A stretch of DNA of 61,217 bases, filler included, from Bipalium vagum (Eukaryota), in assembly GCA_037834085.1 (NCBI GenBank). It is 3 parts of 3 records of this genome, joined end to end, with 100 filler letters (N's around TTAATTAATTAA, not from the genome) between each part and the next. Parts side by side here need not be neighbours in the genome. Positions count along the whole stretch, not along the records: positions 44,204 to 61,217 come from JBBMKC010082682.1; 2 more parts are not named here. The stretch is one strand, 5' to 3'. A program made the position numbers and the translations under genes. Shown in pieces: positions 12,453 to 54,060 of the stretch (positions are counted from its first letter, which is position 1; every line of letters begins with the position of its first letter). Below the pieces are notes generated by a model, which saw nothing but the letters and a program-made list of their open reading frames with translations, ran no database searches and was not told where the DNA came from.

Positions 12453-15400
12453 TGAACAAATATCAAGCATTATCGTGATTCCCATCGCTTCTCAAAAACA
12501 GTAATTTTCATAGATTATTTCTTTAAAAGAGAAATATTGACCGATATTGACCAGAAGTAGCCAAGGATTTCCTGATTGGAATTGTATTTGTGTTGGTTTC
12601 ACCAGTGGAATGGTCAAGTTTTACGATCAGGTTCATTCATTTTAAAAAAGGACACTTATATAATGTTACCCTTTTCCATTGATTTCAAACAGAGCGGACA
12701 GCTGATTTTTACACAAAAGTTCCACAATGTCAAAGTTGAACAAATACAACTTCACGGCGGTCCTTCCTATAACAATTCGGGAATTATGGATGAAAACCTG
12801 ATGATTCTTTACAATAATTGCTGTTTCCAGATTGAAGGATCTCATCTTTACGAATCATTGAACAAATTTAAAAAACAATTGGCTCGTATACAGGCTGGAT
12901 TTTTGGAACAAGATTTGGAGATTTTTCAGTTAAGCTATAAAAAATGGCTTATCGATTATCAAGAAAATGTAACCGGTGCCATTTTCGGATGTAAGTAAAT
13001 GCTTTTTCTAAAAATTCATAAGTAATTGAGTTCATTGATCTATATCTCCGTTCGATTTAATTTTATTAATTATTTTGACAATTCTAAAAAGATTTTGTTA
13101 ATTAGTGGGTTTTTTGGTACATATCAATAAGATAATTTTTTATTGATTATTATTAACCTTTGTATCTTAAATTTAAAAAATGTGTTTTTCAATAAAATTT
13201 ATTAACAACTTTTATTGATTTTTAAAAATGAATTTAATTATTTTTAACGATGTTTTATTATGTTAATTAATATAAAATACCAAAATTGATTTTTTAATTT
13301 TACTAATCTTTTTACTGTGTTTATCGATTATTATTATTATTTTCATTATTATATGTTCAGATGAAACCAGTGATTGTGTCTTAGACAACATTTTTATACA
13401 TGCTTCAAACAAAGGACCATTTGCATCGGTACCTGATCAGGTGTCAAAGCACATAAATTGTGCTACAGTAGGCAAGAATCCGTTTATTGTGTTTTACCGA
13501 TTACCTTTAGTAAGATTTATTATTAACCTTTTATGAAATTTTTAAGTGAATTTTTTTAACAAAGGAAGCTGATTCTTTAAATATGGGAGACTTGGCTCAA
13601 GCAGTTTATAGCAAAGTGAAAGGTGCCATATCTTCATCGTAAGTTTTCTCTTAATCGATTTCTTTCAAAGTTTAAACAATCAATGAGAAACAGAAAGACG
13701 GTTCTTCTACTTCTTAAAAATCTATAAATCTAATTTTTTTCATACTCAGTTGTTTATTGATTTATTAATAATAATCAATATTTTTGTAAAATTAGTTTAC
13801 AATATCTTACAAAATACTTAAAATGCTCACTAGTTCAATTAATTTCTTTAAGTGGAAAAAATGTTTTATATAAAGAAAAAATATTGATTTTCTGTATTTA
13901 TGATATAATTAAATCTTAAGGTATAAATAAAACAATTTTTTTCCAAATTCCAAGAATACGTAAAATTTATTTCGGATTTTTAAGTATATAACCAGCCGAT
14001 CAAAAGTATTAGTCAAAGCAATCGAATTTTCAAATATAACATAAATAGAACTTTATTTACACATGAAAAAATGTTTTACAGCTAACTTATTTATTTATAA
14101 AATTTAACAACCCTTTTCATATTAATTATTGGGTTGTAAAGCTCAAAATCCAACTAATACAATTTATTTAAAAAATGAATTTTTACATAGATAAAATAAA
14201 AAACTAAAAAAGTAATTTCCATTGTTATGATCTTTTGCCACCTTGCAGGTAAATTCATGATTCCTTCCTCATAAAAACTGGTGGACTTAGACATAAAGAA
14301 TTTGTCCAAGGCGTTTTTGATATCGACCTCTTAAGAAAATTCTTTTCCATTCAGATAATTTTGAAGAGACCTGAACAGATGATAATCTGAAGGCGCGATA
14401 TCAGGTGAGCACGCCGGATGAGGAAGAACTTCCCATTCTAATGCCTTAAATTTTTCCTGTACGATTTTTGAAATATGGCGTCTGGCATTGTCATGTTGAA
14501 TGATGACATTCTTTCTGTTTATCAATCCTGATCTGGATTTTTTTTAATTCCACCTCGTCTTCCTAATTGGTCACAATAAAACTGTCCTGTGATAGTTATG
14601 TTACGTGGTAAAAGATCGTTATATATTACTCCACGATAATCCCACCAAACAGACATCATAATTCAGCGAGGATGAAGGTCTGGTTTGGCAGTGGGTATCG
14701 GCTTCTGGCCAGGCGTAAGTCATTGCTTTTTTCTTTTCATGTTGTCGCAGCACACCCACTTCTCATCTCCTGTTACAATTCTTTTTAAAAAATTATCGTT
14801 ATTGAATCTTTGGAGAAGAGAAGAACAAGTCAACAATCTGCGCTTTTTGTTGTTTTCACTTAAGCAATGAGGAATCCATAACCCTTGCCTATGGACTTTG
14901 CCTAATTCATGAAGATGAGGGGCAATGGTAGTGTGAGAGACCTGAAGGTGATCTTCCAAATGACACTTTGTACACAGAGGATCTCCATAGATAAGAGATA
15001 GAAGAATATTGTTATCCAAATTTGATGAACTTCCTCCTCTTCTTTCGGAAATATCAAAATTTCCGCCTTTTAATCTTCTAAATCATCTTTGACATTTATC
15101 TAGTGGTAGATTTCATTCAGAATAGGTTGTTGATATATTTTTAAATGCATTTAAGCTGGTTGATCCCTTTCTAAATTCATATATCAAACAATGCCTGAAA
15201 TGAATTTCTTCAGTATTCATCTAAAATTAATTTTATCTAATTATTTAAAATGTTGCAAAATTATTAAATCAAACTAATCAGTAAAACAACATGTTACTAA
15301 CATTTAATTAATAGTAGTTATTATTTTTTTTATTTATTATTGAGAAATATGGTCTCAAAAATTAGTTTATAATAAGTTGGATTTTAAACTTTACAACCTA

Positions 15401-19590: not shown

Positions 19591-21231
19591 GTGAGGAGAA
19601 TATTTTGTTAATGACTGATTTTTCAATTAATATGTGCCATGGGCCGTTGGAAGGGTTTCCACGGATCTATTTGTTATTGATTATTATTTTTAAAAAGCAC
19701 ACATTTATTCATAGTTCATATCGATTGATATTTATTGGTTGACCTTAAACATCATATTTGACCAATGAAATTATTTCTTTTCAGATATATTTTAAAGATG
19801 ACTTAAATTAAAGCAAAATTAAAATTAAGTAATAATGTTCTGATTAATATTTTGTGTACTACTAAATATACAGTCCAATATTTAAAAATCAGAATCTCTT
19901 CACTAGCCAATAGCTAATCACCTTTTCCATTAGTTAATGAAGAATCCGACCGTTTTTAATTATTCAACTCAGTTAGAACGTATTCGTCAGAGCTGAAAAA
20001 TCAACTACCTTAGGTTTCCTTAAAAAATAAATGTTTTATTTTTAATATGGAAAAGCTAGTTAAAAGTTTTAGGAATTTTTAATTACTATATAATAATTAT
20101 AATTACTATATAATCATCAATTAAAATATTATTATCACTATCAATTACTAATACTATCCTATATATCATCAATTATTATTATAAAAATAAAAATAGTTAA
20201 AATGAATGAATTAAAAAATCAATTGTAAATGGGAATCAGATTGATCATTGGAAATCAATATTGCTCTGATATCATCATACAAAGCTGTCATAAATGATGT
20301 GGAAATTGTCTGCCTAAGTCTGGTCTACAATGCGATTATGATACTTATTTACGCAAATTTTTCTGCGAATTCATCCAATAAATAAATGAAATAAAAAAAT
20401 TCGATATCATTATGTTGATGTCCTTAAGTAAAAAATTCCTTCCAGTCCCATTGTTGTTTTTATCAGTAAAATTTGACAAGTAATTTTTTGCAACTATTTT
20501 TCCCAAAAAATATTTATAACAGCAACAGATTTACCAATGAAACAACACTAGATTTGGAAATACAAGAATGATTTGTTAATAAATATAATAAAAAATATAA
20601 TTGAATAAAATTACAATAAAAATAATTAGAAATAATAAAATATGTAAGACAAATTTTTAAAAAAATTTATTTAATCATTATTATTATTTTCATTTTTTTA
20701 TTATTATTATTATCATTATTATTATTACTTATCATAGTAATTCAAAAGTATTATAATGATAGGTTTTTCAATATTCAATAAATGTATTTCCGGTAAACAA
20801 TCCGTCGAAGAAATTTTACATTTGGTCATTGTTCAGACAAAACTTGAACCAGTTTCCTGTTTCGTAAGTTTTAACGTTTATTCATAATACATGTTAATCA
20901 AATCAAAAATTCCTCAATAATCTGAATAAAAATCGATTTAATTTTTGATTTATGTTAAATATTTTACTTATTGAATTGAATTTTATTTTTTCTATTTTAT
21001 AAACGAAAGGATTTTTCTTTTCAAAGGATTTTTCAAACATACTCATTCTCGAAAAATAAATTGAAAGAATAGTTAAATAATATGAAAGGAATTTTTTAAA
21101 GTATACTAACAGTTTTTATAATTTTTTCTGTGGAATCGATATTTTCAATTATTTTTTATATCAGGTTGTGTAGTATGAAATTTGTAAAATGAAAAACAAA
21201 GTTTATTAATAAATTACAAATAAAAGAAACT

Positions 21232-21331
21232 NNNNNNNNNNNNNNNNNNNNNNNNNNNNNNNNNNNNNNNNNNNNTTAATTAATTAANNNNNNNNNNNNN
21301 NNNNNNNNNNNNNNNNNNNNNNNNNNNNNNN
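21232..21331. other. Artificial contig-joining spacer (44N-TTAATTAATTAA-44N)
   Basis: Exactly 100 bp. The central 12-mer gives stops in all six frames. An identical structure occurs at 44104-44203. Confidence 0.97.
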
Positions 21332-31247: not shown

Positions 31248-32291
31248 ATGTTTCGGTCAAGTAAATCGTCAATTTCCGAAAAGTCAGAGTATCTGGTGGA
31301 TATTGATATTTTAATATCAAAATTAATTGAGGGGGGCCACCTTGGAGACCGTATCCAATTATCCTCATCTGAGTGCAAAGCGATCGCCGTTGTTATTCGT
31401 TCGGAATTTGATTCAAGCATATGTATTTATGTTAATGGCCCGGTTAATATTTGTGGAGACATTCATGGGCAATATTCAGATTTAATAAGAATTTTTGATT
31501 TGTGTGGATATCCTCCAGATAGTAGGTATTTGTTTCTAGGAGATTATGTGGACAGGGGACGACGGGGACTCGAAGTTTTGATGTTATTATTCTCTTATAA
31601 AATAAAGTATCCAAAATCGGTTTACCTGCTCCGAGGAAATCATGAATGCGAACGAGTGAGTAGAGTTTACGGTTTTCGACAAGAAATCAAAGAAAGATTT
31701 AAGTCCAGCAAAGTGTGGAAAACATTTATCAGAACTTTTGAGTTCATGCCACTTTGTGCAATTATAGAAAAGACAGTATTTTGCTGTCATGGAGGTTTAT
31801 CGCCGATATTACTGAGTAAAAATTGCAAAACAATTGAAGATGTATTTAGCCAGTTTTCGTTACCTGCCGAAATACCGAGTGAAGGCCTACTTTGTGATTT
31901 AGTATGGTCCGATCCGATGGATCAGACAAACAAATTTGAACCAAAAGGATGGATAAAAAGTAGACGAGGATGTTCATGGAATTTTGGATATGATGTTATC
32001 AATGAATTCTTAGGAAAATACCATCTCGACTTGATTGTGAGAGGTCATCAGGTCGTGGTCGATGGATACGAATTCTATTGCAATCGTTCTTTAGTAACAG
32101 TATTCAGTGCTCCCAGATATTGTGGAGAGTTCGATAATGCTGCCGCAATTTTCGTTTTGGAAAAAGAAAAAAACAAGGATGAACCAACCTCTTTGGAAGG
32201 ATCGTTTAAAATTTTATTACCAGATTACAATATTCCGCACCAGTGGTTCAGGAACTTGAAACCAAAAAAAGAATTCGGATTTTTCAGTTAA
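31248..32291 (+). CDS. Intronless PP1-like Ser/Thr protein phosphatase (PPP family)
   Basis: Intact GDIHG, GDYVDRG, LRGNHE, HGG, DLVWSDP, RGHQ and SAPRYCGEFDN motifs. First in-frame ATG at 31248. Confidence 0.93.
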   Translation: MFRSSKSSISEKSEYLVDIDILISKLIEGGHLGDRIQLSSSECKAIAVVIRSEFDSSICIYVNGPVNICGDIHGQYSDLIRIFDLCGYPPDSRYLFLGDYVDRGRRGLEVLMLLFSYKIKYPKSVYLLRGNHECERVSRVYGFRQEIKERFKSSKVWKTFIRTFEFMPLCAIIEKTVFCCHGGLSPILLSKNCKTIEDVFSQFSLPAEIPSEGLLCDLVWSDPMDQTNKFEPKGWIKSRRGCSWNFGYDVINEFLGKYHLDLIVRGHQVVVDGYEFYCNRSLVTVFSAPRYCGEFDNAAAIFVLEKEKNKDEPTSLEGSFKILLPDYNIPHQWFRNLKPKKEFGFFS

Positions 32292-33912: not shown

Positions 33913-34093
33913 GTTGCTTGATAAATTATATGCTTGTCATAATCATGAAATATAATGCTAAAAATCGAAAAAACATTATAAAGCACCAAATATTAAGAAG
34001 TAACCGATACAAACTACTGTTCAAAAAATTAAGTCAATATCGTACGAACATAAAAATTACATAAATTTATTGGAATTTTATCTTGACTACATA

Positions 34094-34158
<65 letters not shown>
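33913..34158 (+). repeat. ~190-bp repeat unit plus (TAA)n tail; inverted copy at 36584-36769
   Basis: Aligns by eye with the reverse complement of 36584-36769 with long exact blocks. (TAA)n microsatellite at ~34098-34158. Confidence 0.85.
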
Positions 34159-34575
34159 GCTATTATTGTTGGCTATTAAAAATAATTAAATAATAAGTAA
34201 TTATTTTAAATTTATTTATATTAATGAATAAATTTATTTCTCTTTTTTCATTTTCATAAGATAAATATTTATTAAAAAGAAATTCAATTTTTAAAAAAAT
34301 TTTTAAAAAGAAAAAAATAGGCGTTAAAATATTAATAGTAACAGAGTTAAATTACTATTAAAATAAATAAATATTGGTAATAAATTAAGGTGATGGTAAT
34401 AATGGTAATAAATTATATACTTTAAATTAATAAAAAAATATTTGTTCTGATTAAGTTTTTTATAATTTTTCATTAATTATCGTCATCGATTTAAGAAATA
34501 TCAAACATTTTGATGTTACTATTTATTCATGACAATAGAGAAAAGTAATAGTAATTATCGTTTAGTCGTAGAAGA

Positions 34576-35298
34576 CTAAAGGTATGGTAATAGCAAATTG
34601 GTCTCACAAGCATGACCACCAGCTACATCGGTTGTAGTTTTGACAGATAAGCCAAATAGGGATAATGATGTTACAACCTTTGGTGAATTCACGCAAGAAC
34701 TATGTTTGTTACTCGACCAATATTTTGGATCTATCAGTATTTTGGAATTGATCCATCGATAAGATCCAGATAAATTCGTTGAATAAGTTAAGCAACCACC
34801 TCCTACCCATATTGAGTCTAGTGGAAGTAATGGCTTCGACGTTTGAAATAATTCTGTACTTGTCAATTCAGCAAGAACCATGTCATTGTTTTGACATTCT
34901 TTTATGGCATTATCATATGATTCTGAGCTCAGCAAACCTTTCTTAAGGCTCAAAAACTTGACAGCCAAATAGTCTTCTCCAATATCAGTGAAATTTCTCT
35001 TATAAAACACCTGAAACAGACTGGTACAATTATTTACATTGGATATTACAGCCTGATTCGCGTAATTAGTACAAACATCGTTAGTGATCGTATATCCCGA
35101 GCAGGCATCCTTTTGGTCGGAGCACCATGATGCACAACGCACAGAGGTTGATTGGTAAAAGGATCTTGACGTCGAATACATCATTTCTATCAAACAAGTT
35201 GGTAACATTATTTTATAATACATGTAATTATTCATCTGGCAATACAAACCCTTCTGGAAACCCAAGAGAAGCCACGTTACTCTCGTTAATAAAAACAT
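34576..35298 (-). CDS. Secreted PAN/apple-like + C-type lectin-like domain protein
   Basis: 240-aa intronless ORF with signal-like N-terminus. CASWC..CSGY..C PAN-like segment followed by CTLD hallmarks (SYDNAIKEC..LAEL, IWVGG, YRWIN, HACE). Confidence 0.75.
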   Translation of the reverse strand: MFLLTRVTWLLLGFQKGLYCQMNNYMYYKIMLPTCLIEMMYSTSRSFYQSTSVRCASWCSDQKDACSGYTITNDVCTNYANQAVISNVNNCTSLFQVFYKRNFTDIGEDYLAVKFLSLKKGLLSSESYDNAIKECQNNDMVLAELTSTELFQTSKPLLPLDSIWVGGGCLTYSTNLSGSYRWINSKILIDPKYWSSNKHSSCVNSPKVVTSLSLFGLSVKTTTDVAGGHACETNLLLPYL

Positions 35299-35671
35299 TC
35301 AGATAGAACAAATGATTATCCATTACACAGACTGATAGATTTATATAATTTATTGTGTAACGTTAAGAAAAAGCTCTTCGGTCGATTGAAGAGAAAAATA
35401 ATTAATTACCTGAATTAAATTAATGAATTTTATTTGTTTTGGTACAAATTAACAATCTCTTTATTTGTTTAAATGGATAAGTTGTTTATTTGTTTAAATG
35501 AATAAGTTTAAAGTCGAAATGTTACAATGAATTGTTCTACAATAATAAGTACTGTATTAAAATAATAATTGATTAAATTTGTAGAATAAAAATGTCGGAG
35601 CAATATATATTATAGCTTTATAACAATATTTCTTGACTAAAGATAAATAGCAATCTCTAATTAGCAAAGAA

Positions 35672-36430
35672 TTAATTAGCTGGCTTGACAATTTGAAATG
35701 AACATTGTAAGTTTTCATCAACACTCATAAGCGCAGCTGCATTATCAAATTCGTTGCAATAGTTTGGGGCTGAAAAGATTGTGACCAACTTTCTATTAGC
35801 AAAGAATTCATATCCATTTTGAACGACTTGATGAGCTCTACACACAAGTTCCAGATCATTATTTACAAGAAATCCCAAAAGGACTTTGTTTCCAAAACAA
35901 TAGCTGACACCTCTTTCATTTGCATCATAGTAATCCACAAACTTTGAAGGATCAGACCATAATAAATCACATTCGAATCCATAATCTCCAACTTCAGCAG
36001 GCCTTTTACATGTATTTATAATGCTAATATCGTTCAAGTGTGGGAATATTCCTCCATGGCAGCAAAATATTCTTGAAACAATAACAGCAGCAAGAGGAAG
36101 ATAGTTGAAGCAATCTGTAATTTTTTTTTATCTTTTCATGTTATATTTTCTTTTACATTCCTCTAAAAAAACCAATAAAACCTATTTATATTTGAACATT
36201 CATGACCATGTATATCTCCTGCAATTTTCACTGGAGTAAATAATTCCAATAAAACTAATTGCTGTCTGAACACACCTTTTGCAAATTGACATAATTTTTG
36301 TATTTCTTGAAAAGTCAAAGAGTTTTCACAAATCTTTCCAGGAAGCTGCTTCTTTTTACTTGTTTTCTTTCCAACTTTCATCAATTTATTTATACAGTTA
36401 TCTAAGAAATCATGAGTAGTAGTATTGTAC
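35672..36430 (-). pseudogene. PP1 catalytic subunit pseudogene (intronless, internally deleted)
   Basis: GDIHG is fused directly to HECSNINRFY, so the GDYVDRG region is missing; stops and a frameshift follow. The C-terminal half retains CCHGG, DLLWSDP, RGVSY, CRAHQVV and [11 protein letters not shown]. Confidence 0.88.
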
Positions 36431-36583
36431 TAATTGGAAATAATAAGTTATTATTTATTTTTAATATGGTGCAGATCATTATCTGATTCTTATGATTTTG
36501 GAAATATATTCTTTCATCAAAAATATATTATTATTATTATTCATTATTATTATAATTATAATTATTTATCATTATTATATTAT

Positions 36584-36769
36584 ATTATATTATGTAGTCA
36601 AGATAAAATTCCAATAAATTTATATAATTTTTATTTTCGTACAATATTGACAATTTTTTGAACAGTAGTTTGTATCGGTTTCTTCTTAATATTTGGTGCT
36701 GTATAATGTTTTGCCGATTTTTAGCATTATATTTCATGGCTGTGACAAGGACATAATTTATCATGCAAC
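36584..36769 (-). repeat. Inverted copy of the 33913-34100 repeat
   Basis: Reverse complement matches 33913-34100, e.g. catgaaatataatgctaaaaatcg, accgatacaaactactgttcaaaaaatt, taaatttattggaattttatcttgactacataatataat. Confidence 0.85.
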
Positions 36770-38990: not shown

Positions 38991-39762
38991 CTCCACAGCG
39001 TAATTTTATTATTGCATTTTTTCAGATAAATAAGGATCAGAAATCTTTATTTCAATGTAATATGTTTTGAGATATTGAACTTTTATTGACATTTCTCTTT
39101 TGATTAATTATAAATAAGTTAATTAAGGATCCGAGAATGATCTGAAAGGATCACGATATCACAACGAATTACAAAAGATCCATTGACTTAGAAAGCCTTG
39201 ACATCCAATATGAGTCCGAAAAATCGACTCCAACAAGATCAGTAAACAATCAGAAGGTGCAGATATTCATGGAGTTAAATCCGTCGTTAATACACCTAAA
39301 AACGAAGTTCGACCACGAGCTGTGGGTGTCAGACATAATACGAACATAACAATTTTCCTTTTTTCGTTAAGTGACAATTATTATTGGGATTTAATTGTCT
39401 CCACTCTTCATATTAAAGAATTAAATGAAGAGAATCTTTGGTCACGGACTGATTGATTGGCAATTTTCTTTCTGACAGCTAAAGCCCTCATTTGAGATTA
39501 CGACAGATATTTGACATTCACAATTCACCACAAGAAAACTGAGCTCAGAGTACCAGTTCACACGCTTTGACAGTGTTTTAATTAATGTTATTATTAAAAA
39601 CAGTATTAACTTTGTCAATTTAAATTTCATTAACTGATTTCTCATATTTTTCACAACTGAGGGGAATAGATCATGATAATAATTAAAACAAACAAAGTCT
39701 TTAATAATGATAAAAAATAGAAATAAAACCCAATAATTATTAATTGTTATATATAATGTTTA

Positions 39763-39920
39763 NNNNNNNNNNNNNNNNNNNNNNNNNNNNNNNNNNNNNN
39801 NNNNNNNNNNNNNNNNNNNNNNNNNNNNNNNNNNNNNNNNNNNNNNNNNNNNNNNNNNNNNNNNNNNNNNNNNNNNNNNNNNNNNNNNNNNNNNNNNNNN
39901 NNNNNNNNNNNNNNNNNNNN
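39763..39920. other. Ordinary scaffold gap (158 N)
   Basis: Run of N without the spacer motif. Confidence 0.97.
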
Positions 39921-40202
39921 TGATTACATTGGTAGGCCGTGTTCTTGGTAAACACTTCGTCAACGGTTGTCAAATTTGGGAAAGAGTAATCGAAGCAATC
40001 ACAGTCCAAATTTGAAATGGTGTGGAATAATTCCCTATGTCACGTGAAATCAATAATGCCATGTGGAAAATAATCAATTAAAATATATCTGAAATAAGTA
40101 TTTATTTCAAGAATTAGCTCTATCTCTCTCTCCATAGATATATATATTCCTATTTCCACAACAAAGAGCTTTCACATGGGATAAATTCACAGTTTTCCCC
40201 AA

Positions 40203-44103: not shown

Positions 44104-44203
44104 NNNNNNNNNNNNNNNNNNNNNNNNNNNNNNNNNNNNNNNNNNNNTTAATTAATTAANNNNNNNNNNNNNNNNNNNNNNNNNNNNNNNNNNNNNNNNN
44201 NNN
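44104..44203. other. Artificial contig-joining spacer (44N-TTAATTAATTAA-44N)
   Basis: Same 100-bp structure as 21232-21331. Confidence 0.97.
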
Positions 44204-44558
44204 AATCATGCCAAATTTTATTGAAATATAAATATTTTTTCGGCTTCATTCTAAGGACTTATCAGCCCAACCATGTACATTCAATTGGAAAAATAAATAG
44301 ATTTGACAAATGGATTTCACACCAACTTAGTCTTGAAAACGTGCATTTCTAATATCTTGATATTTAAAAATAAAATGCTTACAAATATCCTTATCATCCT
44401 AAGATAATAATATTCAATAAAATATTGATAAATTACAATATATTGTAATTAATGATAATCATAATAGTAATACTATAATTAATAATAATATTAATTTTTA
44501 ATTTACTGAATTTTAGGGCATATTTCCATAACATATTAAGGATAAAATTATTTATAAC

Positions 44559-45529: not shown

Positions 45530-45835
45530 TTTGCCTTACAATTGAAGAAAATGGCTTATGAGGCCACAAATATGATTATTTCCACTCTGGATAAAGGTGG
45601 TCAGCTCTAAAACCTCAAAAAGTTGTTTGATCGTTTTAGAAGTGAAATCTAGACTTTTAACGATGCAGAACGCCCAGGTGTATCAAAAATCAGTATGGAT
45701 GAAGGCCTTGAGAATTTGTTAGATGAATATTATAATATGTCAGACACAATCAGGACTTGCAATACAACTTGAAGTTACTCAGAAGCCAATTTCTTGTCGA
45801 CTCAAAAAGTTTGCAGGTGGGTACCGCATAATTTT
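45530..45835 (+). mobile_element. Mariner 5' fragment
   Basis: FDRFRS..DAERPG and WVPH remnants. Confidence 0.6.
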
Positions 45836-46559: not shown

Positions 46560-47295
46560 CCCCTGGCCAGAAAGGTAAGTAATATGCGTCAGATAAATGT
46601 GGAGCGATTCCCTAACTGCCGTTATAAGGAGAACATGGGCGAAAGCACCTCTCTGATCTTTGGAAAGGCCGAGCTTCCATGACATCTGAAACATACCTGG
46701 CGTTTCTTTGGACAATCCCTGTTACTATGTTCTTACTATGTTACAGGTCTAGCATTCCATTTGTTTTCTTGACAGTTTCTCCCTAAATGGCCCTTCTTAT
46801 TACATCTGTAACATTTAATATTTTCTTTGAATATTGTATTCCTTTAAATGAGTCGATCCGTTTTCATCACTTTGTGGTACTCTCCTTGTAATTCCTAACT
46901 TTACTCACCGACTTCATCAAATCTTATATTTCGCTTCCTTTCAAATTCTGAAATCCCGTGCAACCTTCTGATTTCCAATACTCTGTACCAAGACAGCGCC
47001 TCGAGATTAACAACGGTCAGTTCATGTGAAAGTGGTTTTTCTATCAATGCTCTTGTCTTTCTAAAAACAAAGCTTCAATATCATCGCTGCCACTTCTATA
47101 CGTTATTAACTTCTAGGAGTTTTTCTTCGAAACTTAATCGAATTCTTCAAATCCGCTTACGTTCCCCGATGCTTCATTGTAGATTTCCCATAAATCCTAA
47201 AGTAACACCACTAAAATCGCTGTTTTCTCATCTTTGTTGGTGTCTCCTTAATGTCAAAGTATTTGGCTGAAAATATTGCTGAAAATGGAGAATAT
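46560..47295 (-). mobile_element. Retrotransposon gag remnant (probably Ty3/gypsy) with CCHC zinc knuckles
   Basis: IKCYRCNKKGHLGRNC, a decayed second knuckle (H.NRDC) and VCFRCH. Many stops and frameshifts; no pol directly downstream. Confidence 0.65.
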
Positions 47296-47299
47296 ATTT

Positions 47300-48388
47300 A
47301 TAACGGAGCTCTAAATCATTATGATGAAGATGAAGAAAATGAAATAAAAGAAGTAAATTTTATTAGAAATGAAAGTGAAAATTAATTTTTAAATGTTACT
47401 GGAGATTCAATGAAAGGAATTTTAAATATGAATAATAATGAAATAGTAAATATAGTTGATCTAATAAATGATAATGATCTTGTACATTTTAAATTTGTAA
47501 AAGAGAGAATAAAAAATATTAAACCAAATTATTGAAAATAAAAGAGACTAATATAAATAATAGAAATATTAAAGGTTTTAATTTTAATTTTATTTTATTT
47601 AAAGAAAAATTTTATAATGATAAAAAACATTTAGAAGATAAAAAATTTAGATATTAAACACCTCAATTAAATCTTGAGAAAATTTTAATAAAGATATAGA
47701 AAAAAATATAAATAAAAAATATTCAGATATTGAAATAAAATATAAATCTATAGAAAAAGATGTTAATGAAATGCGAACTATGTTCTCGAAAGCAAGCACA
47801 CACAATTAAGTTTTAGAATATAGCATATTTCAGATATTATAAAAAACTTAAAATAAATATAAAATATTCTTATGCTGTTGATGATTATAAAAATGGAAAT
47901 CTTTAATAAAGTATATTTTCTGGAAAATTAAAAATAAATTTAAATGAACTTGTATATTTTGGTGGAGAAAGAATTTTTATTTGAAAAATGCATTTACAAT
48001 AATATCAGTTGCAGACAAAATTAATATGAAATTGATAAGATTGTAAATTTTGGAACAAAAATCATTATCATATTTTTGTATGGTATAATAATTATAGGAA
48101 TTATTTTATTGTAAATGGAAGACCTTTAGAGAAAACCTATGCTAAAGAATATAAAGGAATATATTTAGTATTTTTAAGATTTGGTGTGATAAAGTTACAA
48201 AAAAATTAATTTTTTATAATTCCGAAAATAAATTTGAATCTATTTGTAATGATTATAAAAATCTTAAATTAAAAATTAATTCACAAAATATAATAATTTA
48301 TGAGATTATAGTTTTTCATAGATATTTACAAAATAACGAGCTACAAAATAAAAGAAATAGAAATTTTTATGAAAAAAATTTATCCTAA
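47300..48388 (+). pseudogene. Viral fibre/receptor-binding-like protein remnant
   Basis: LNVTGDSMKGILNMNNNEIVNIVD..D tail-fibre-type repeat (~47389-47505), a coiled-coil-like middle, and a LamG-like C-terminal IYEIIVFHRYLQNNEL (~48297). Confidence 0.55.
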
Positions 48389-48490
48389 TATATGATTCAA
48401 TGTAGCGTTTTGAGTCTTCCAAACAATTCTTTACAATGTACAATATTAAAAAAAATCTTTACATTCATTTTTCAAAATTTATATTAAAAA

Positions 48491-49157
48491 ATGGAAATTG
48501 AACCAAATGCTCCTTTTGAAAAACTTTATCCAAATTTAGAAAGTAATGATAATAAGAGAAGATTATCTTCCAAATTTATTTAAGATTCTAATCCACTTAT
48601 GAAAAATAAAAAATTGAAAATTTTTTGAATGAGAAAAAAGTTTTAGAAGATCTGTTATCCCATTAAAAAACAAATTAAAATTTAGATATACAAAATAAAA
48701 TTCAGGTATAAAAACAGCAAGTAATGTTATAACTGGAGTTATTTGAGTTGGTACTGCAATAATGGCAGAAGTTTCAACTTCAGGAATTGGATTATTAATT
48801 TATATTACTGCTGCAACTGGAATTCTTGGTGTTATAAATTTAAACATTTTTGAAACTATTAGGAAAAATTTAAGAAGTAAAAAGAAAAATCTTTACAGAG
48901 AAATTTTCTGAGTCTATAGAAAAATCAATTAGTAAACTTTATTTTTCAAATGAAAGCTTTAGAAGATAAGATTTTAACTAATGAAGAAATTGAACAAGCA
49001 AAAATAATTATTAATGATTGCAAATATTAAAGCTATTAAAGCAGGAAATGTTATTGAAAATGTTAAAAGTAAAGCAAAAGACAATTTGAAAATTGTGTTG
49101 AAGAAAGAGTATAAGGCAGCTATAAAACAAACCCACGAGAAAATGAAAAATTTATAA
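48491..49157 (+). pseudogene. Adintovirus-type membrane-active ('GasderminX'-like) protein remnant
   Basis: Starts MEIEPNAPFEKLYPNLE. Contains a Gly/Ala/Thr-rich hydrophobic hairpin (VITGVI*VGTAIMAEVSTSGIGLLIYITAATGILGVI), a basic patch and a KALEDKILTNEE motif. Confidence 0.65.
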
Positions 49158-50195: not shown

Positions 50196-50960
50196 TGTTG
50201 ACTTACAGAAAAAAAAACCTTTTATCTCAAAAATTTTCTTCATCATTTTAGTAAAAAGTAAAACATCAGAAATATTTTTTATATTTAATAATACTTTATA
50301 TATTCATCCTAATTTAAACAATGAACTAGGATTAGTTTATTTGTCAACTTATAATTCTATATTTAATATAAATGAAGATAATAATTGAATTAATATAACA
50401 GTAATAAATAGTAAAATTTTACCCGATACCTAAAATATCAGATTAACCCCGGGTGCTTATGAAATTTTAGAAATATCAAAAGTAATAGAAAATGAATTAT
50501 AATATGATAACACTTTAAAACCTATGGAAGCGACTGTAGTTTCAAATGGTAAAACCATTGATAAAGAATATTACATAAAAATTAAACCTAATTCTGTTTC
50601 AGGAAATTGTATAATGAAAATAGCCAAATGATGTGAAGTTCATTTTCACTAGCTAATTTTTCAGGGTTTGAAATTATGATGTATACTAAAGGAATTCATT
50701 ATTCTAAAAAAAATTAATATTTCAAATTTCAATAACATTATGATAGATTGTAATGTTGTAAATGGATCCTTTTTGATTTCCCAAAAAACACTGAACGAAG
50801 AGGATATAAGCTTATAGAAAGACCAGATTTTCCAATTTATTATTCCGTAATTGTAAGGATAATTGATAAAATAAATTTTAGAATTATAGATGATAATGAT
50901 GAGTTAATAAACTTTAATGGAGAATATATTACTTTTAGAGTTCATTTAAAGCAGGTGTAA
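50196..50960 (+). pseudogene. Minor capsid protein (penton, single jelly-roll) remnant
   Basis: LSTYNSIFNINEDNN, PGAYEI, IMIDCNVVNGSF, GYKLIERPDFPIYY and IIDDNDELINFNGEYITFRVHLK match the Polinton mCP pattern. Stops and frameshifts present. Confidence 0.8.
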
Positions 50961-50986: not shown

Positions 50987-51570
50987 ATGGAGTTCTATTG
51001 TGATGGTTTCTTAAATAATAATTCTGTAAAAATTAAAAATAATTCTAATTTACCAGAAATTTTTAGAATATTAATTATTGGTCCTTCTAGATCTGGTAAG
51101 ACAATGTTATTATATAATATGTTATTAAAAAAGGAATATTTCGATTATAAAAATTTGATTATTTTTTCTAAAACGCCTTTGCTAAAATTACACTTATAAA
51201 GTCCATGAAATTAAAGTAACATTATCAGCAAATGAAATTCAACCTCCGGATAAATTGGATAAAACTAAAAAATATTTTAACTATTTTTGATGATGTAATA
51301 AATGAAAAAAATCAAACTATTATGGAAATGTATTTTACAAGAGGAAGACATAATAAATGTTCAGTAATATATTCATCTCAATCATTTTTGGATTTACCTT
51401 TAAAAAGTATAAGAAATAATACTAATGTTTTAATTTTCTTTAAAATTTCAAAATCAGATAAAAATCGAATTTATTCAAAAATATTAGCTCATTTTTTGAG
51501 AGAAAGATGTGTCTGATTATTTGTATGATTTCCATATAAAAGAAAACTATAATTATTTTTTATAAATTAA
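50987..51570 (+). pseudogene. A32/FtsK-HerA-family DNA packaging ATPase remnant
   Basis: Walker A RILIIGPSRSGKT, Walker B LTIFDD, arginine motif TRGRH, sensor SQS and IRNN. Split over two ORFs. Confidence 0.9.
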
Positions 51571-51679: not shown

Positions 51680-52922
51680 ATGAGGAATAATTTGAACTTA
51701 GATAAAAATACATATCATCAAGATTTAACAATTAAAAAATGTGATTATTTAGAAGTTCCTTTAAATCCTACAACAGCAACAAATTTAAATAAAAATGGAA
51801 ATTTAACTTTTAGTTTATTACAATCAGCATATGCTTTAGATTTATCAGAAACACTTTTAGTTTTTGAAATTGAAATATTTGATATTAAAGCAGATGAAAA
51901 TATAACTCTACAAATAAAGTTTTTTCCATATCTATTTTCTAATGCAATTTTAAAGTTAGGTTCAACAGAAGTAGAAACAATTCAATATTCAGGAGTCTCA
52001 AATTCTATATCAAATTTTATAATGTTTAAAAATGAAACTTTAAGGGAGAAATATTTTTATGGATTCCTCATAAAGAAAAAGAAAGTGTAGCAAAAGGCAA
52101 TAAAGGATATAAATCAAGAAAAAGTTTATACTCTCAAAATAAATATACAGGTGAATTTCCATTAAAATTAATGATTGGTTTTTTACAATATTTTAATAGA
52201 GTTATTTATAATATGCAAGGGGAATTAACATTTACAAGAATTATTGATATTGATAAAGAAATATTTTATGGAACGAACGGAGATAGAAAAATAAAATTAC
52301 TTGATTTAAAACTATTTATTCCAGAATTACAATTGAATCCTGAAACTGAATTAAAATTAATAAGTAGAATTGATGATGGAAAAAATATTATTGTAAATTT
52401 TTTATCAAGACATTGTGAAGAAAGAAATCTTACAGAAGGAACAACTCAAACATTACAATTATATAATATTCCAAATAAACCAATTTATTTATAAATTTTA
52501 GAGAGTCTGAATTTGATTTTACAAAAATTAATAGTTTGTTTTTTCAAGATAAAATAAAATCTTTAAGAATTCAAGTTAATAATTACTATCCATTAAATCC
52601 AATTCAATTTGAAAAAGGGAAAAATAATAGAACTTATTCAAATTATGTAAAAGCATGTGAATATTTTGGAAATGATCCTCAATTAAGTTTATTGGAATTT
52701 CAAAATTTATATTCAATATTTTGTTTTGATTTAAAAGATCAACCAGAAAATTTATGTTTAAATGGTGCAGTTGTAACTCTTCATATTTTAAAAGATAAAA
52801 ATTTTAAAGGAAAAATAAATGTTGTTTTGTTACAAGAACAATTTATGGAATTAAAATTAAAAGAAGGAGAAATGTTTAATATTGAAACATCTAATATGTT
52901 CACAAAAGAGAGTTTGAAATAG
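51680..52922 (+). pseudogene. Double-jelly-roll major capsid protein (hexon-like) remnant
   Basis: Three consecutive ORFs totalling ~410 codons. FFPYLFSNAILKLGSTEVE, GFLQYFNRVIYNMQGELTFTR, YYPLNPIQF and LSLLEFQNLYSIFCFDLKDQPE match Polinton PY/MCP patterns. Confidence 0.82.
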
Positions 52923-53117: not shown

Positions 53118-53244
53118 ATCATCTGTTCAGGTCTCATTAAAATTATCTGAATTGAAAAGAATTTTCTATAGAGATCGATATCAAAAACGCCTTGGACAAT
53201 TTCTTTGTGTGTACGTCCACCAGTTTTTATGAGGAAAGAATCAT
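53118..53244 (+). mobile_element. 127-bp mariner fragment of the same family as 14129-15401
   Basis: Close match to the reverse complement of ~14257-14383 (atcatctgttcaggtctc..tcgatatcaaaaacgccttggacaa..gtccaccagtttttatgaggaa). Confidence 0.85.
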
Positions 53245-54060
53245 ACTCACAATATTCTTTATCATGAAATGTAACTTTTGATTCTTTGTGTTCTTGACAC
53301 AACCTTATATGTTCATTTATAAAATTTTATCATATATAGGAATTTAAAGATTTTGAAAAAACATATTTACTATGATTATTATTATTATTAGAAAATATGT
53401 ATATATTTCTAACATAATATTTAAAACATAATGTTACATTTTCTATTTCCATATTTGGTTTTGCATTAAAATGTTCTTGATATATTGGTAGTATGTTTTT
53501 ATTGCTTCTCAACTCCAACTTTGTTGGATCATTGTTTTTTAATTCAAATATATTTATACTAATATTGTTTTGCTTATTAAATTTTTTAACATCTTCTATT
53601 TTTAAAGGAAATTCAATATTAATTTTATTTTATTCATTACTATAAAGTTTATAATTATTTAATCTTTCCGAATGAATTATTACTGGGTGAAGATAACCTA
53701 GTACAAATATTTAATTTTTCTTATATTCAAAGGATAATTTAACATAAAATGAACCTATTGATATTTAATTAAATTTATTTGAATAAAATTTATATTTACA
53801 AACTTCCATCCTGAAACTGTCAATTCTCTTTCTACAATAATTGTGTTTAATTATTGAAGATGATGTTGAATTGATGTAGTTATTTCCGTCTTATTAGTTA
53901 ATACTTGTGGATGTGTATAAAATTTATATGCTAGTTCTTCTTCTTTGTTAGTACCATGATTTATAATATGAAGATTAATATATTTACATTGTATTAATAT
54001 TTGATATTTAAATTTATCTTTAGTATAATCACATTGTTGGTTGGTTTTTTTCATCATCAT
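53245..54060 (-). pseudogene. Protein-primed family B DNA polymerase (Polinton/adintovirus type), N-terminal region only
   Basis: SGWK, GSFYVKL, LGYLHP..SERLNNY and NIEFPLKIEDVKKFNKQNNISINIF match the conserved pre-exonuclease region of group-2 Polinton PolB. Catalytic domains are absent. Confidence 0.78.

Follow-up and report, generated by a model that had tools for sequence, protein, structure and literature searches.

A candidate ESCRT-recruiting family of SLATT-like hairpin proteins in Polinton-like viruses, traced from a broken gene in Bipalium vagum

Introduction

Polintons and adintoviruses are known mostly from genomes. A broken gene in the DNA of Bipalium vagum (GCA_037834085.1; plus strand, 48491..49157 of the window, i.e., the whole 61,217-nucleotide stretch analyzed here) bears on how such viruses leave the cell. 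In a preliminary description it was read as a viral membrane-active protein that begins with two motifs resembling ESCRT-recruiting late domains and through which the virus may recruit ESCRT for endosomal escape or quasi-enveloped exit. At issue are whether the motifs are conserved in a gene family and which of these steps such a family would serve.

SLATT genes are common in Polinton-like viruses (PLVs), and the accessible parts of the PLV literature (PMC12220804 and 10.64898/2026.10.13.758929 among the sources) either regard SLATT as a putative pore, used in endosomal escape, lytic exit or defence, or give it as a label only, with ESCRT not mentioned in those parts. For adintoviruses, the text and the portion of the supplement available from Starrett et al. 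2021 (PMC8502044) name PLA2X, GasderminX and Cupiennin, label SLATT genes on the maps and make no mention of ESCRT; the figures and full supplements of that study may annotate the hairpin family described here. ESCRT and late-domain terms were not found in the available portions of PMC11071308, PMC8097293 and 10.1101/2023.10.06.561300, to which that of PMC7923801 added nothing. Throughout the literature searched, which covers few subscription papers, no link of Polintons or adintoviruses to ESCRT, TSG101 or a late domain was found, nor one of an iridescent virus late domain to ALIX, and none of the papers searched describes an enveloped Polinton particle. SLATT genes in Polinton-like viruses are already known, and the absence of an ESCRT link from the literature searched agrees with the preliminary description, which held the coupling to be uncharacterized for these viruses.

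The broken hairpin gene

The gene at 48491..49157 is what remains of one predicted to encode a SLATT-like membrane protein with a hairpin and, at the N-terminus, late-domain-like motifs. It is recognized by tblastn with the relatives P0002-P0009, by the profile of an alignment of the family (A2, described below) and by phmmer, in which a 75-residue hairpin piece gave 2 matches among 1.84 billion proteins (E 4.3e-9 and 5.1e-5). The gene lies in six pieces and three frames, with five frame changes and at least two in-frame stops, on which grounds an intact gene at this place was rejected; the window copy encodes no whole protein and is a dead copy. An ATG at 48491 starts MEIEPNAPFEKLYPNLE, the frame of which ends after 30 codons (TAA 48581-48583) and includes PNAP at 48503..48514 and, at 48524..48538, LYPNL, an ALIX-type YPxL motif found as the same pentapeptide in P0008. 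The pieces that follow, all on the plus strand, are a part of the first conserved helix in another frame (48601..48663; tblastn to P0002 residues 11-31, 67% identity, E 3e-4), a basic patch, hydrophobic Gly/Ala/Ser/Thr-rich hairpin and second basic patch (48672..48905; tblastn 28-49% identity to five relatives), and a C-terminal helical region in three pieces (48880..49157), of which 48920-49027 has a profile E of 5e-8 and the flanking pieces are weaker (E 0.11 and 0.16). The preliminary description had the motif pair followed by the hairpin and did not mention that this copy lacks a whole protein; peptide and hairpin are both real, but the Gly/Ala/Thr-rich hydrophobic stretch (48699-48910) is in a frame other than that of the motifs, contains an internal stop (48744-48746) and is part of a dead gene.

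Translated in six frames, the window has LYPxL alone three times and P[ST]AP never. A PxAP at most 12 residues ahead of a YPxL occurs once (48503-48538) and is absent from all 1000 sequences simulated on the dinucleotide composition of the element, by a search pattern that was picked after the motif pair had been seen.

Related copies of the element were read as contigs of a single sequencing run, possibly that of the source sample. On 47200-49100 there are 1933 contigs, and as 1384 of these are under 95% alike, they point to many diverged copies. At 48507, the middle base of the PNAP Asn codon, 42 contigs read a Thr codon and so give PTAP among the differences listed. These contigs make up a depth of 4982.5 of 5841.1, a measure that does not equal copy number, and most related copies therefore have the canonical, TSG101-type PTAP where the window copy has PNAP; PNAP as a working variant was rejected on this basis. 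The LYPNL site shows no difference among the rows listed for the related contigs. PNAP had earlier been proposed to be a decayed or variant PSAP (AAT for AGT), and a canonical motif is what most related copies have, but with a codon for threonine rather than serine, so that the proposed codon is wrong.

The degraded provirus and its setting

Judged by its gene remnants, the host of the broken gene is a degraded jelly-roll Polinton-like provirus, truncated in this copy. The remnants begin with a stretch similar to the N-terminus of a fibre-like gene at 47368..47484 (+; tblastn E 1.9e-4 to L009:705-1868, a stretch that matches a tail-fibre PHROG at E 4.4e-6 and belongs to a fibre-like gene preceding the hairpin gene in that locus). 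Beyond the hairpin gene lie a broken frame at 50250..50960 (+), likely a minor capsid protein from its position and with no informative match in Pfam, and a broken A32-like packaging ATPase at 50987..51516 (+), in which a Walker A motif is visible and a 70-aa piece matches Pfam Pox_A32 at E 5.2e-4 and 20 bits, under the 22.8 cut-off. The broken double jelly-roll major capsid protein at 51680..52922 (+) matches PF21738 (E 4.2e-9) and, with 45% identity, the capsid end of L002 (tblastn E 3e-22), which bears out the earlier call of a jelly-roll virus. The opposite strand holds, facing this capsid module, what is left of the N-terminal part of a PolB-like gene (53480..53704, -; tblastn E 2.7e-5 to a 1342-aa ORF of L004), where the name PolB comes from motifs read by eye in the L004 ORF and Pfam, PDB and PHROG give no confirmation. 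The double jelly-roll capsid and the A32/FtsK-type ATPase agree with an element of the Polinton/Maverick (adintovirus-like) group. A few queries found neither a retroviral-type integrase nor a cysteine protease in the window; a protease-like ORF in L009 and an integrase-end-like ORF in L010 are named by eye only, without a library match. The window has 289 inverted repeats, and the 25 longest include no pair that flanks the element as terminal repeats would.

The window itself is AT-rich animal DNA with Pfam matches to innexin, an HMG-box gene, a KH-domain gene, PEPCK and a Tc3-type transposase, and GC drops to ~20% across about 47.2-53.8 kb, the degraded viral module. A 127-base piece at the PolB-side end of the element (53118-53244) recurs inverted 39 kb off at 14257-14383 (91% complementary), beside a mariner-like remnant (14720-15082). 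Broken frames with Cys/His zinc-knuckle-like words on the minus strand of 46600-47250 are probably a retrotransposon Gag remnant abutting the left end of the element; one of these frames was run against Pfam and gave no match. On the plus strand, a broken frame at 45600-45830 ends in the word WVPH, which we take to mark a likely mariner transposase remnant.

Other features of the window include inverted arms of ~190 bases, 92-96% alike, at 33913-36769 around a single 240-aa ORF (34576-35298) with PAN and C-type-lectin-like cysteine spacing (domains by eye), apparently a host-like gene within a transposon-like frame. Single-exon paralogous ORFs at 753-1757 (+) and 6244-7032 (-) are inverted relative to each other and 74% alike over 290 bases. 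An intronless PP1-like phosphatase lies at 31248-32291 (Pfam Metallophos E 1.5e-39), with a second PP1-like fragment at 36163-36381. Runs of N (assembly gaps) at 21231-21331, 39739-39944 and 44104-44204 are flanked by TTAATTAA words.

Relatives of the hairpin protein

Of the two phmmer matches the whole one, P0003 (227 aa), led to 7 further relatives at 42-50% identity, none with an informative name, and their alignment led to 11 metagenome loci, 8 of which share one dataset prefix. The hairpin gene adjoins a capsid end in L002 (PF21738 E 4e-4), adjoins PolB-like ORFs on the opposite strand in L004 and L006 and a protease-like ORF in L009 (all by eye, no library match), and has fibre-like genes directly upstream in L001, L003 and L009. 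The upstream stretches (L001 1-1636, L003 3-704 and L009 705-1868) contain a single gene or a pair, made up of a coiled stalk and a lectin-like end rich in beta structure. They are likely fibres or receptor-binding proteins, and only the L009 N-terminus has a library match. No family in Pfam or PHROGs is named for the hairpin protein. Word-index homologue searches with pieces of the window (hairpin and capsid piece) gave no match, and pattern scans of viral and genome contigs gave no confirmed locus, the patterns being so narrow that absence is not implied.

Alignment A2 has 17 rows and excludes P0011, P0013 and P0014 (near-duplicates or cut) as well as L005, L006, L007, L010 and L011 (cut or broken). 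Motifs were counted in the 12 rows whose N-terminus is complete, after L002, L004, L009, P0002 and P0010 had been dropped; the starts of L001, L003 and L008 are the analyst's choice.

Conservation of the N-terminal motifs

A YP-x-hydrophobic motif is present in all 12 full N-termini (0.99 expected by shuffling), YPx(1-3)L, which is the pattern given in the literature, in 7 (0.55 expected), strict LYPxL in 3 (0.01), P[ST]AP in 4 (0.04) and [PA][ST]AP in 7 (0.06), with at least one canonical motif in 9 (0.58); the shuffle expectations ignore shared ancestry, the sample is small and partly dependent, and the YP-x-hydrophobic and [PA][ST]AP patterns were widened after the alignment had been inspected. 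Where YPx(1-3)L is missing (5/12), the YP motif ends in I, V or F, and the 3 of 12 without either canonical motif are P0003 (LYPNV and ATAP), P0005 (tandem YP motifs and ASAP) and L008. Counted over seven clusters, which were drawn by eye on core identity, YP-x-hydrophobic is found in 7, YPx(1-3)L in 5, P[ST]AP in 2, [PA][ST]AP in 4 and any canonical motif in 5. Neither [LIVM]YPx[LIVF] nor P[ST]AP occurs in the 2082 core residues of the same proteins or in 3035 residues of the other ORFs of the loci, and PPxY is found in 0 of 12 N-termini and once in the 2082 core residues.

The N-terminal tails reach local alignment scores of 17-50 vs 228-492 for the cores. With cores only 35-60% identical, the motifs are kept and the remaining tail is unalignable. 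The YP motif lies 14-59 residues ahead of the first helix, and four sequences have it twice; [PA][ST]AP precedes it in L001 and the window and follows it in the others. Independent origins of the motif order are unsupported, since the tree of the 17 cores resolves few groups, with stars on 3 of its 14 inner branches. The cut or broken loci add PSAP in L002 and L009, PTAP in L006 and IYPDL in another frame of L002; L009 has IYHNL at the place of the YP motif. Short tandem repeats are seen in the tails of P0007 (residues 45-80, NPM/NNP units) and P0006 (residues 30-50, PTAP-containing units), and these repeats suggest that the tail grows by slippage, a process able to copy the motif.

Short words that shift in place and become doubled within a variable tail are the picture expected of binding motifs under selection. 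The motifs of this family match the late-domain consensus (LYPNL in the window, PTAP in the related copies and a canonical motif in 9 of 12 relatives) and are conserved in a region predicted to be disordered and exposed, presumably on the cytosolic side. Conservation among homologous N-termini had been proposed as a test of the preliminary description; with P[ST]AP and YPxL far above shuffle expectation, and strict LYPxL at only 3/12, it lends the late-domain reading real support.

Core anatomy and fold

The core is ordered as helix, basic patch, hydrophobic hairpin of 49-61 residues, basic patch and helices. The hairpin is 43-53% G/A/S/T with 1-2 charges, 4-6 basic residues stand on each side in 10 of 12 sequences (the pattern is unmatched in 2), and these flanks suggest that the tail and the C-terminus are both cytosolic. 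A model of P0003 (9 sequences; pLDDT 69, pTM 0.46) has helices at 24-96, 100-159, 164-186 and 189-226, no structure at residues 1-23 (pLDDT under 50) and a weak hairpin tip (pLDDT 46-59). The Kyte-Doolittle 19-mer maximum of 1.8-2.25 denotes moderate hydrophobicity and, because of this and the weakly modeled tip, a soluble protein that inserts late in the membrane is possible.

By hydropathy, hairpin length and model, the family is predicted to have the two membrane helices and helical C-terminal region of SLATT proteins. As 0 of 17 members match the SLATT or DUF4231 Pfam model at E up to 1, the family is filed only as SLATT-like. A viral fold search gave four matches at E <=0.001, three from invertebrate iridoviruses (A0A5B8RH66, A0A068QKD3 and S6DF61) and one unnamed (Q06VM1); these uncharacterized 214-276 aa proteins match at E 1.6e-5 to 6e-4 with a TM-score of about 0.5, but differ in their 15-20% identity and high rmsd (12-28). 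Among the best 50 rows of that search are 8 SLATT-labelled giant-virus proteins (best E 0.046), in a class of long helices that match loosely. The PDB gave three chance-level rows by sequence and none by Foldseek at E 0.001. The VIA-align matches, which reached Z 10.9 at best (rmsd 4.6, 175 aligned), were BAR domains and coiled coils and were set aside as uninformative, being within the range of any long helical hairpin. Atlas neighbours, which are leads only, are unnamed clusters with Nucleocytoviricota or Mollusca members (0.88-0.90) and a DUF4231 cluster (0.85); a further lead at 0.90 is a cluster of 159 members, 58% viruses with Preplasmiviricota the commonest, auto-named for an RTX N-terminal domain.

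Comparison with known systems

Among the late domains of retroviral Gag p6/p9, HIV-1 has paired P[ST]AP and YPXnL motifs, as in this family, and hepatitis A virus is a quasi-enveloped virus whose use of ALIX resembles the proposed route. YPXnL binds ALIX, P[ST]AP binds TSG101 and hepatitis A virus is released via ALIX (available text of PMC10159163). Among jelly-roll DNA viruses, the iridovirus TFV (tiger frog virus; VP031L/VP065L/VP093L) buds through ESCRT, with an ASAP motif that binds Tsg101 (available text of PMC4880917). In Gag, hepatitis A virus and TFV the motifs are in capsid or structural proteins (three separate proteins in TFV), whereas in this family both are on one hairpin membrane protein. 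SLATT proteins of Polinton-like viruses and Nucleocytoviricota share the helix, two hydrophobic helices and helical C-terminus, and differ in that none of the 17 members here has a Pfam SLATT match. The family combines known parts: a SLATT-like viral hairpin protein and paired ESCRT-type motifs.

Adenovirus protein VI and adintovirus PLA2X, GasderminX and Cupiennin are, as is predicted for the present family, membrane-active accessory genes of jelly-roll animal DNA viruses. The family has no PPxY in its N-termini, no N-terminal helix in the P0003 model and no Pfam or PDB match to any of these four, and no gasdermin C-terminal, PLA2 or cupiennin-like domain is among the Pfam matches of the 17 members. 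A parallel with protein VI had been drawn earlier and does not hold: membership was rejected on the lack of PPxY (0/12), the disordered N-terminus predicted for P0003 (no helix at 1-23) and the SLATT-like hairpin core.

The layout appears to match NS3 of bluetongue virus better than protein VI. The late domains PSAP and PPRY at the N-terminus of NS3 are joined with a coiled coil, polybasic motifs, a pair of membrane helices and a C-terminus that binds the capsid, and the protein drives release of a non-enveloped virus without lysis (available text of PMC7409164 and PMC6949946). Both are small proteins with N-terminal late domains, a helical or coiled region and a basic patch before the first membrane helix, and both have two membrane helices and a cytosolic C-terminus, a topology that is predicted for the present family. 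NS3 differs in belonging to a dsRNA virus, in pairing PSAP with PPxY instead of YPxL with P[ST]AP and in having a 21-residue glycosylated loop in place of a tight hairpin. The likeness is by analogy only, with no orbivirus family among the Pfam matches of the 17 members.

Proposed function and alternatives

The best reading, with a probability of about 0.5, is that the family is a putative ESCRT adaptor, anchored in the membrane, by which particles would exit without lysis; that it binds ESCRT, to whatever end, is probable. The family has capsid, PolB-like and fibre-like genes as neighbours, and its unalignable tail retains YP-x-hydrophobic and [PA][ST]AP. The tail is predicted to be disordered, and the hairpin of 49-61 residues with its basic flanks would enter the membrane in such a way that the two termini stay in the cytosol. 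To judge by known late domains, YPxL would bind the ALIX V domain and P[ST]AP the TSG101 UEV domain, and the two may back each other up so that lineages can lose one. If bluetongue NS3 is taken as the model, the C-terminal helices, which are conserved, would hold the capsid at the endosomal or plasma membrane (the putative capsid binding is pure analogy) and ESCRT-III would then cut the bud, giving quasi-enveloped particles that exit without lysis. The hairpin may also leak ions in the manner of a viroporin.

An unlikely alternative, drawing on the same motif conservation, is that the motifs bind ESCRT to sort or shed the protein itself, limiting its toxicity, or to reshape the nuclear envelope for capsids that are assembled inside it. 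Precedents can be cited: herpesviruses use ALIX at the nucleus, Toxoplasma GRA14 carries PTAP and YPXL on the vacuole membrane that serve uptake rather than exit (both in the available text of PMC10159163), and SLATT proteins are described, in the sources as available, as predicted pore formers. The full NS3-like layout fits exit better, however, and the sequences analyzed show no sign of nuclear-envelope targeting.

Somewhat less probable is a role at entry, in which a particle-borne protein would pierce the endosome and the motifs would bind ESCRT to steer the endosome or hinder repair. The hairpin, rich in small residues and moderately hydrophobic, is of the kind found in proteins that insert from a soluble state, the gene follows fibre-like genes in L001, L003 and L009, and the RTX N-terminal auto-name of the Atlas cluster at 0.90, a lead only, points the same way; PLV SLATT proteins have been proposed for pore-based endosomal escape (available text of PMC12220804). 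On the other side, YPxL and P[ST]AP are known above all for their part in exit (available text of PMC10159163), PPxY is absent from all 12 N-termini and the P0003 model has no N-terminal helix. ESCRT repairs membranes, so that recruiting it works against rupture. The earlier label of membrane-penetration protein is kept only as a rival because the PPxY and N-terminal helix of protein VI are absent and the core is SLATT-like, and of the two roles first proposed exit is the better-fitting.

Clathrin-adaptor sorting offers an improbable account, in which the YP motif is a YxxPhi signal, SAP/TAP is a by-product of the Pro-rich tail and the protein acts as a viroporin in lytic exit. Each of the 12 motifs agrees with YxxPhi, a final I, V or F suits it better than strict YPxL, and polisuvirus SLATT proteins have been proposed for lytic egress or abortive infection (available text of 10.64898/2026.10.13.758929). 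Proline nonetheless stands at Y+1 in 12 of 12 motifs, YxxPhi without Pro is depleted (2 vs 6.7 expected) and, among the 51 N-terminal Tyr, 22 have Pro as the next residue, the Pro frequency being 0.10. A YxxPhi signal does not require this proline, and the excess of [PA][ST]AP over expectation also tells against a by-product. Inherited, functionless words in a low-complexity tail are very improbable: the motifs are short, the sample is small and partly dependent and the patterns were widened after inspection, but the motifs persist across cores of 35-60% identity in an unalignable tail, with change of order and duplication.

Implications

The dead copy in the window is valuable as a pointer to the family, whose conserved ESCRT-type motif pair offers one named gene family bearing on non-lytic, quasi-enveloped exit. 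The wider proposition, held at somewhat less than even odds, is that animal Polinton-like viruses, and probably the invertebrate iridoviruses that share the fold, made an NS3-like ESCRT adaptor out of a pore protein of the SLATT type, and that supposedly naked DNA viruses exit wrapped in host membrane. Binding to ESCRT would supply viral SLATT-like proteins, whose present annotation is that of putative pores, with their first host partner, and the family would be a case of convergence with NS3 of the dsRNA orbiviruses. Membrane-wrapped exit could, if the wider proposition is true, carry these viruses between tissues and into the germ line.
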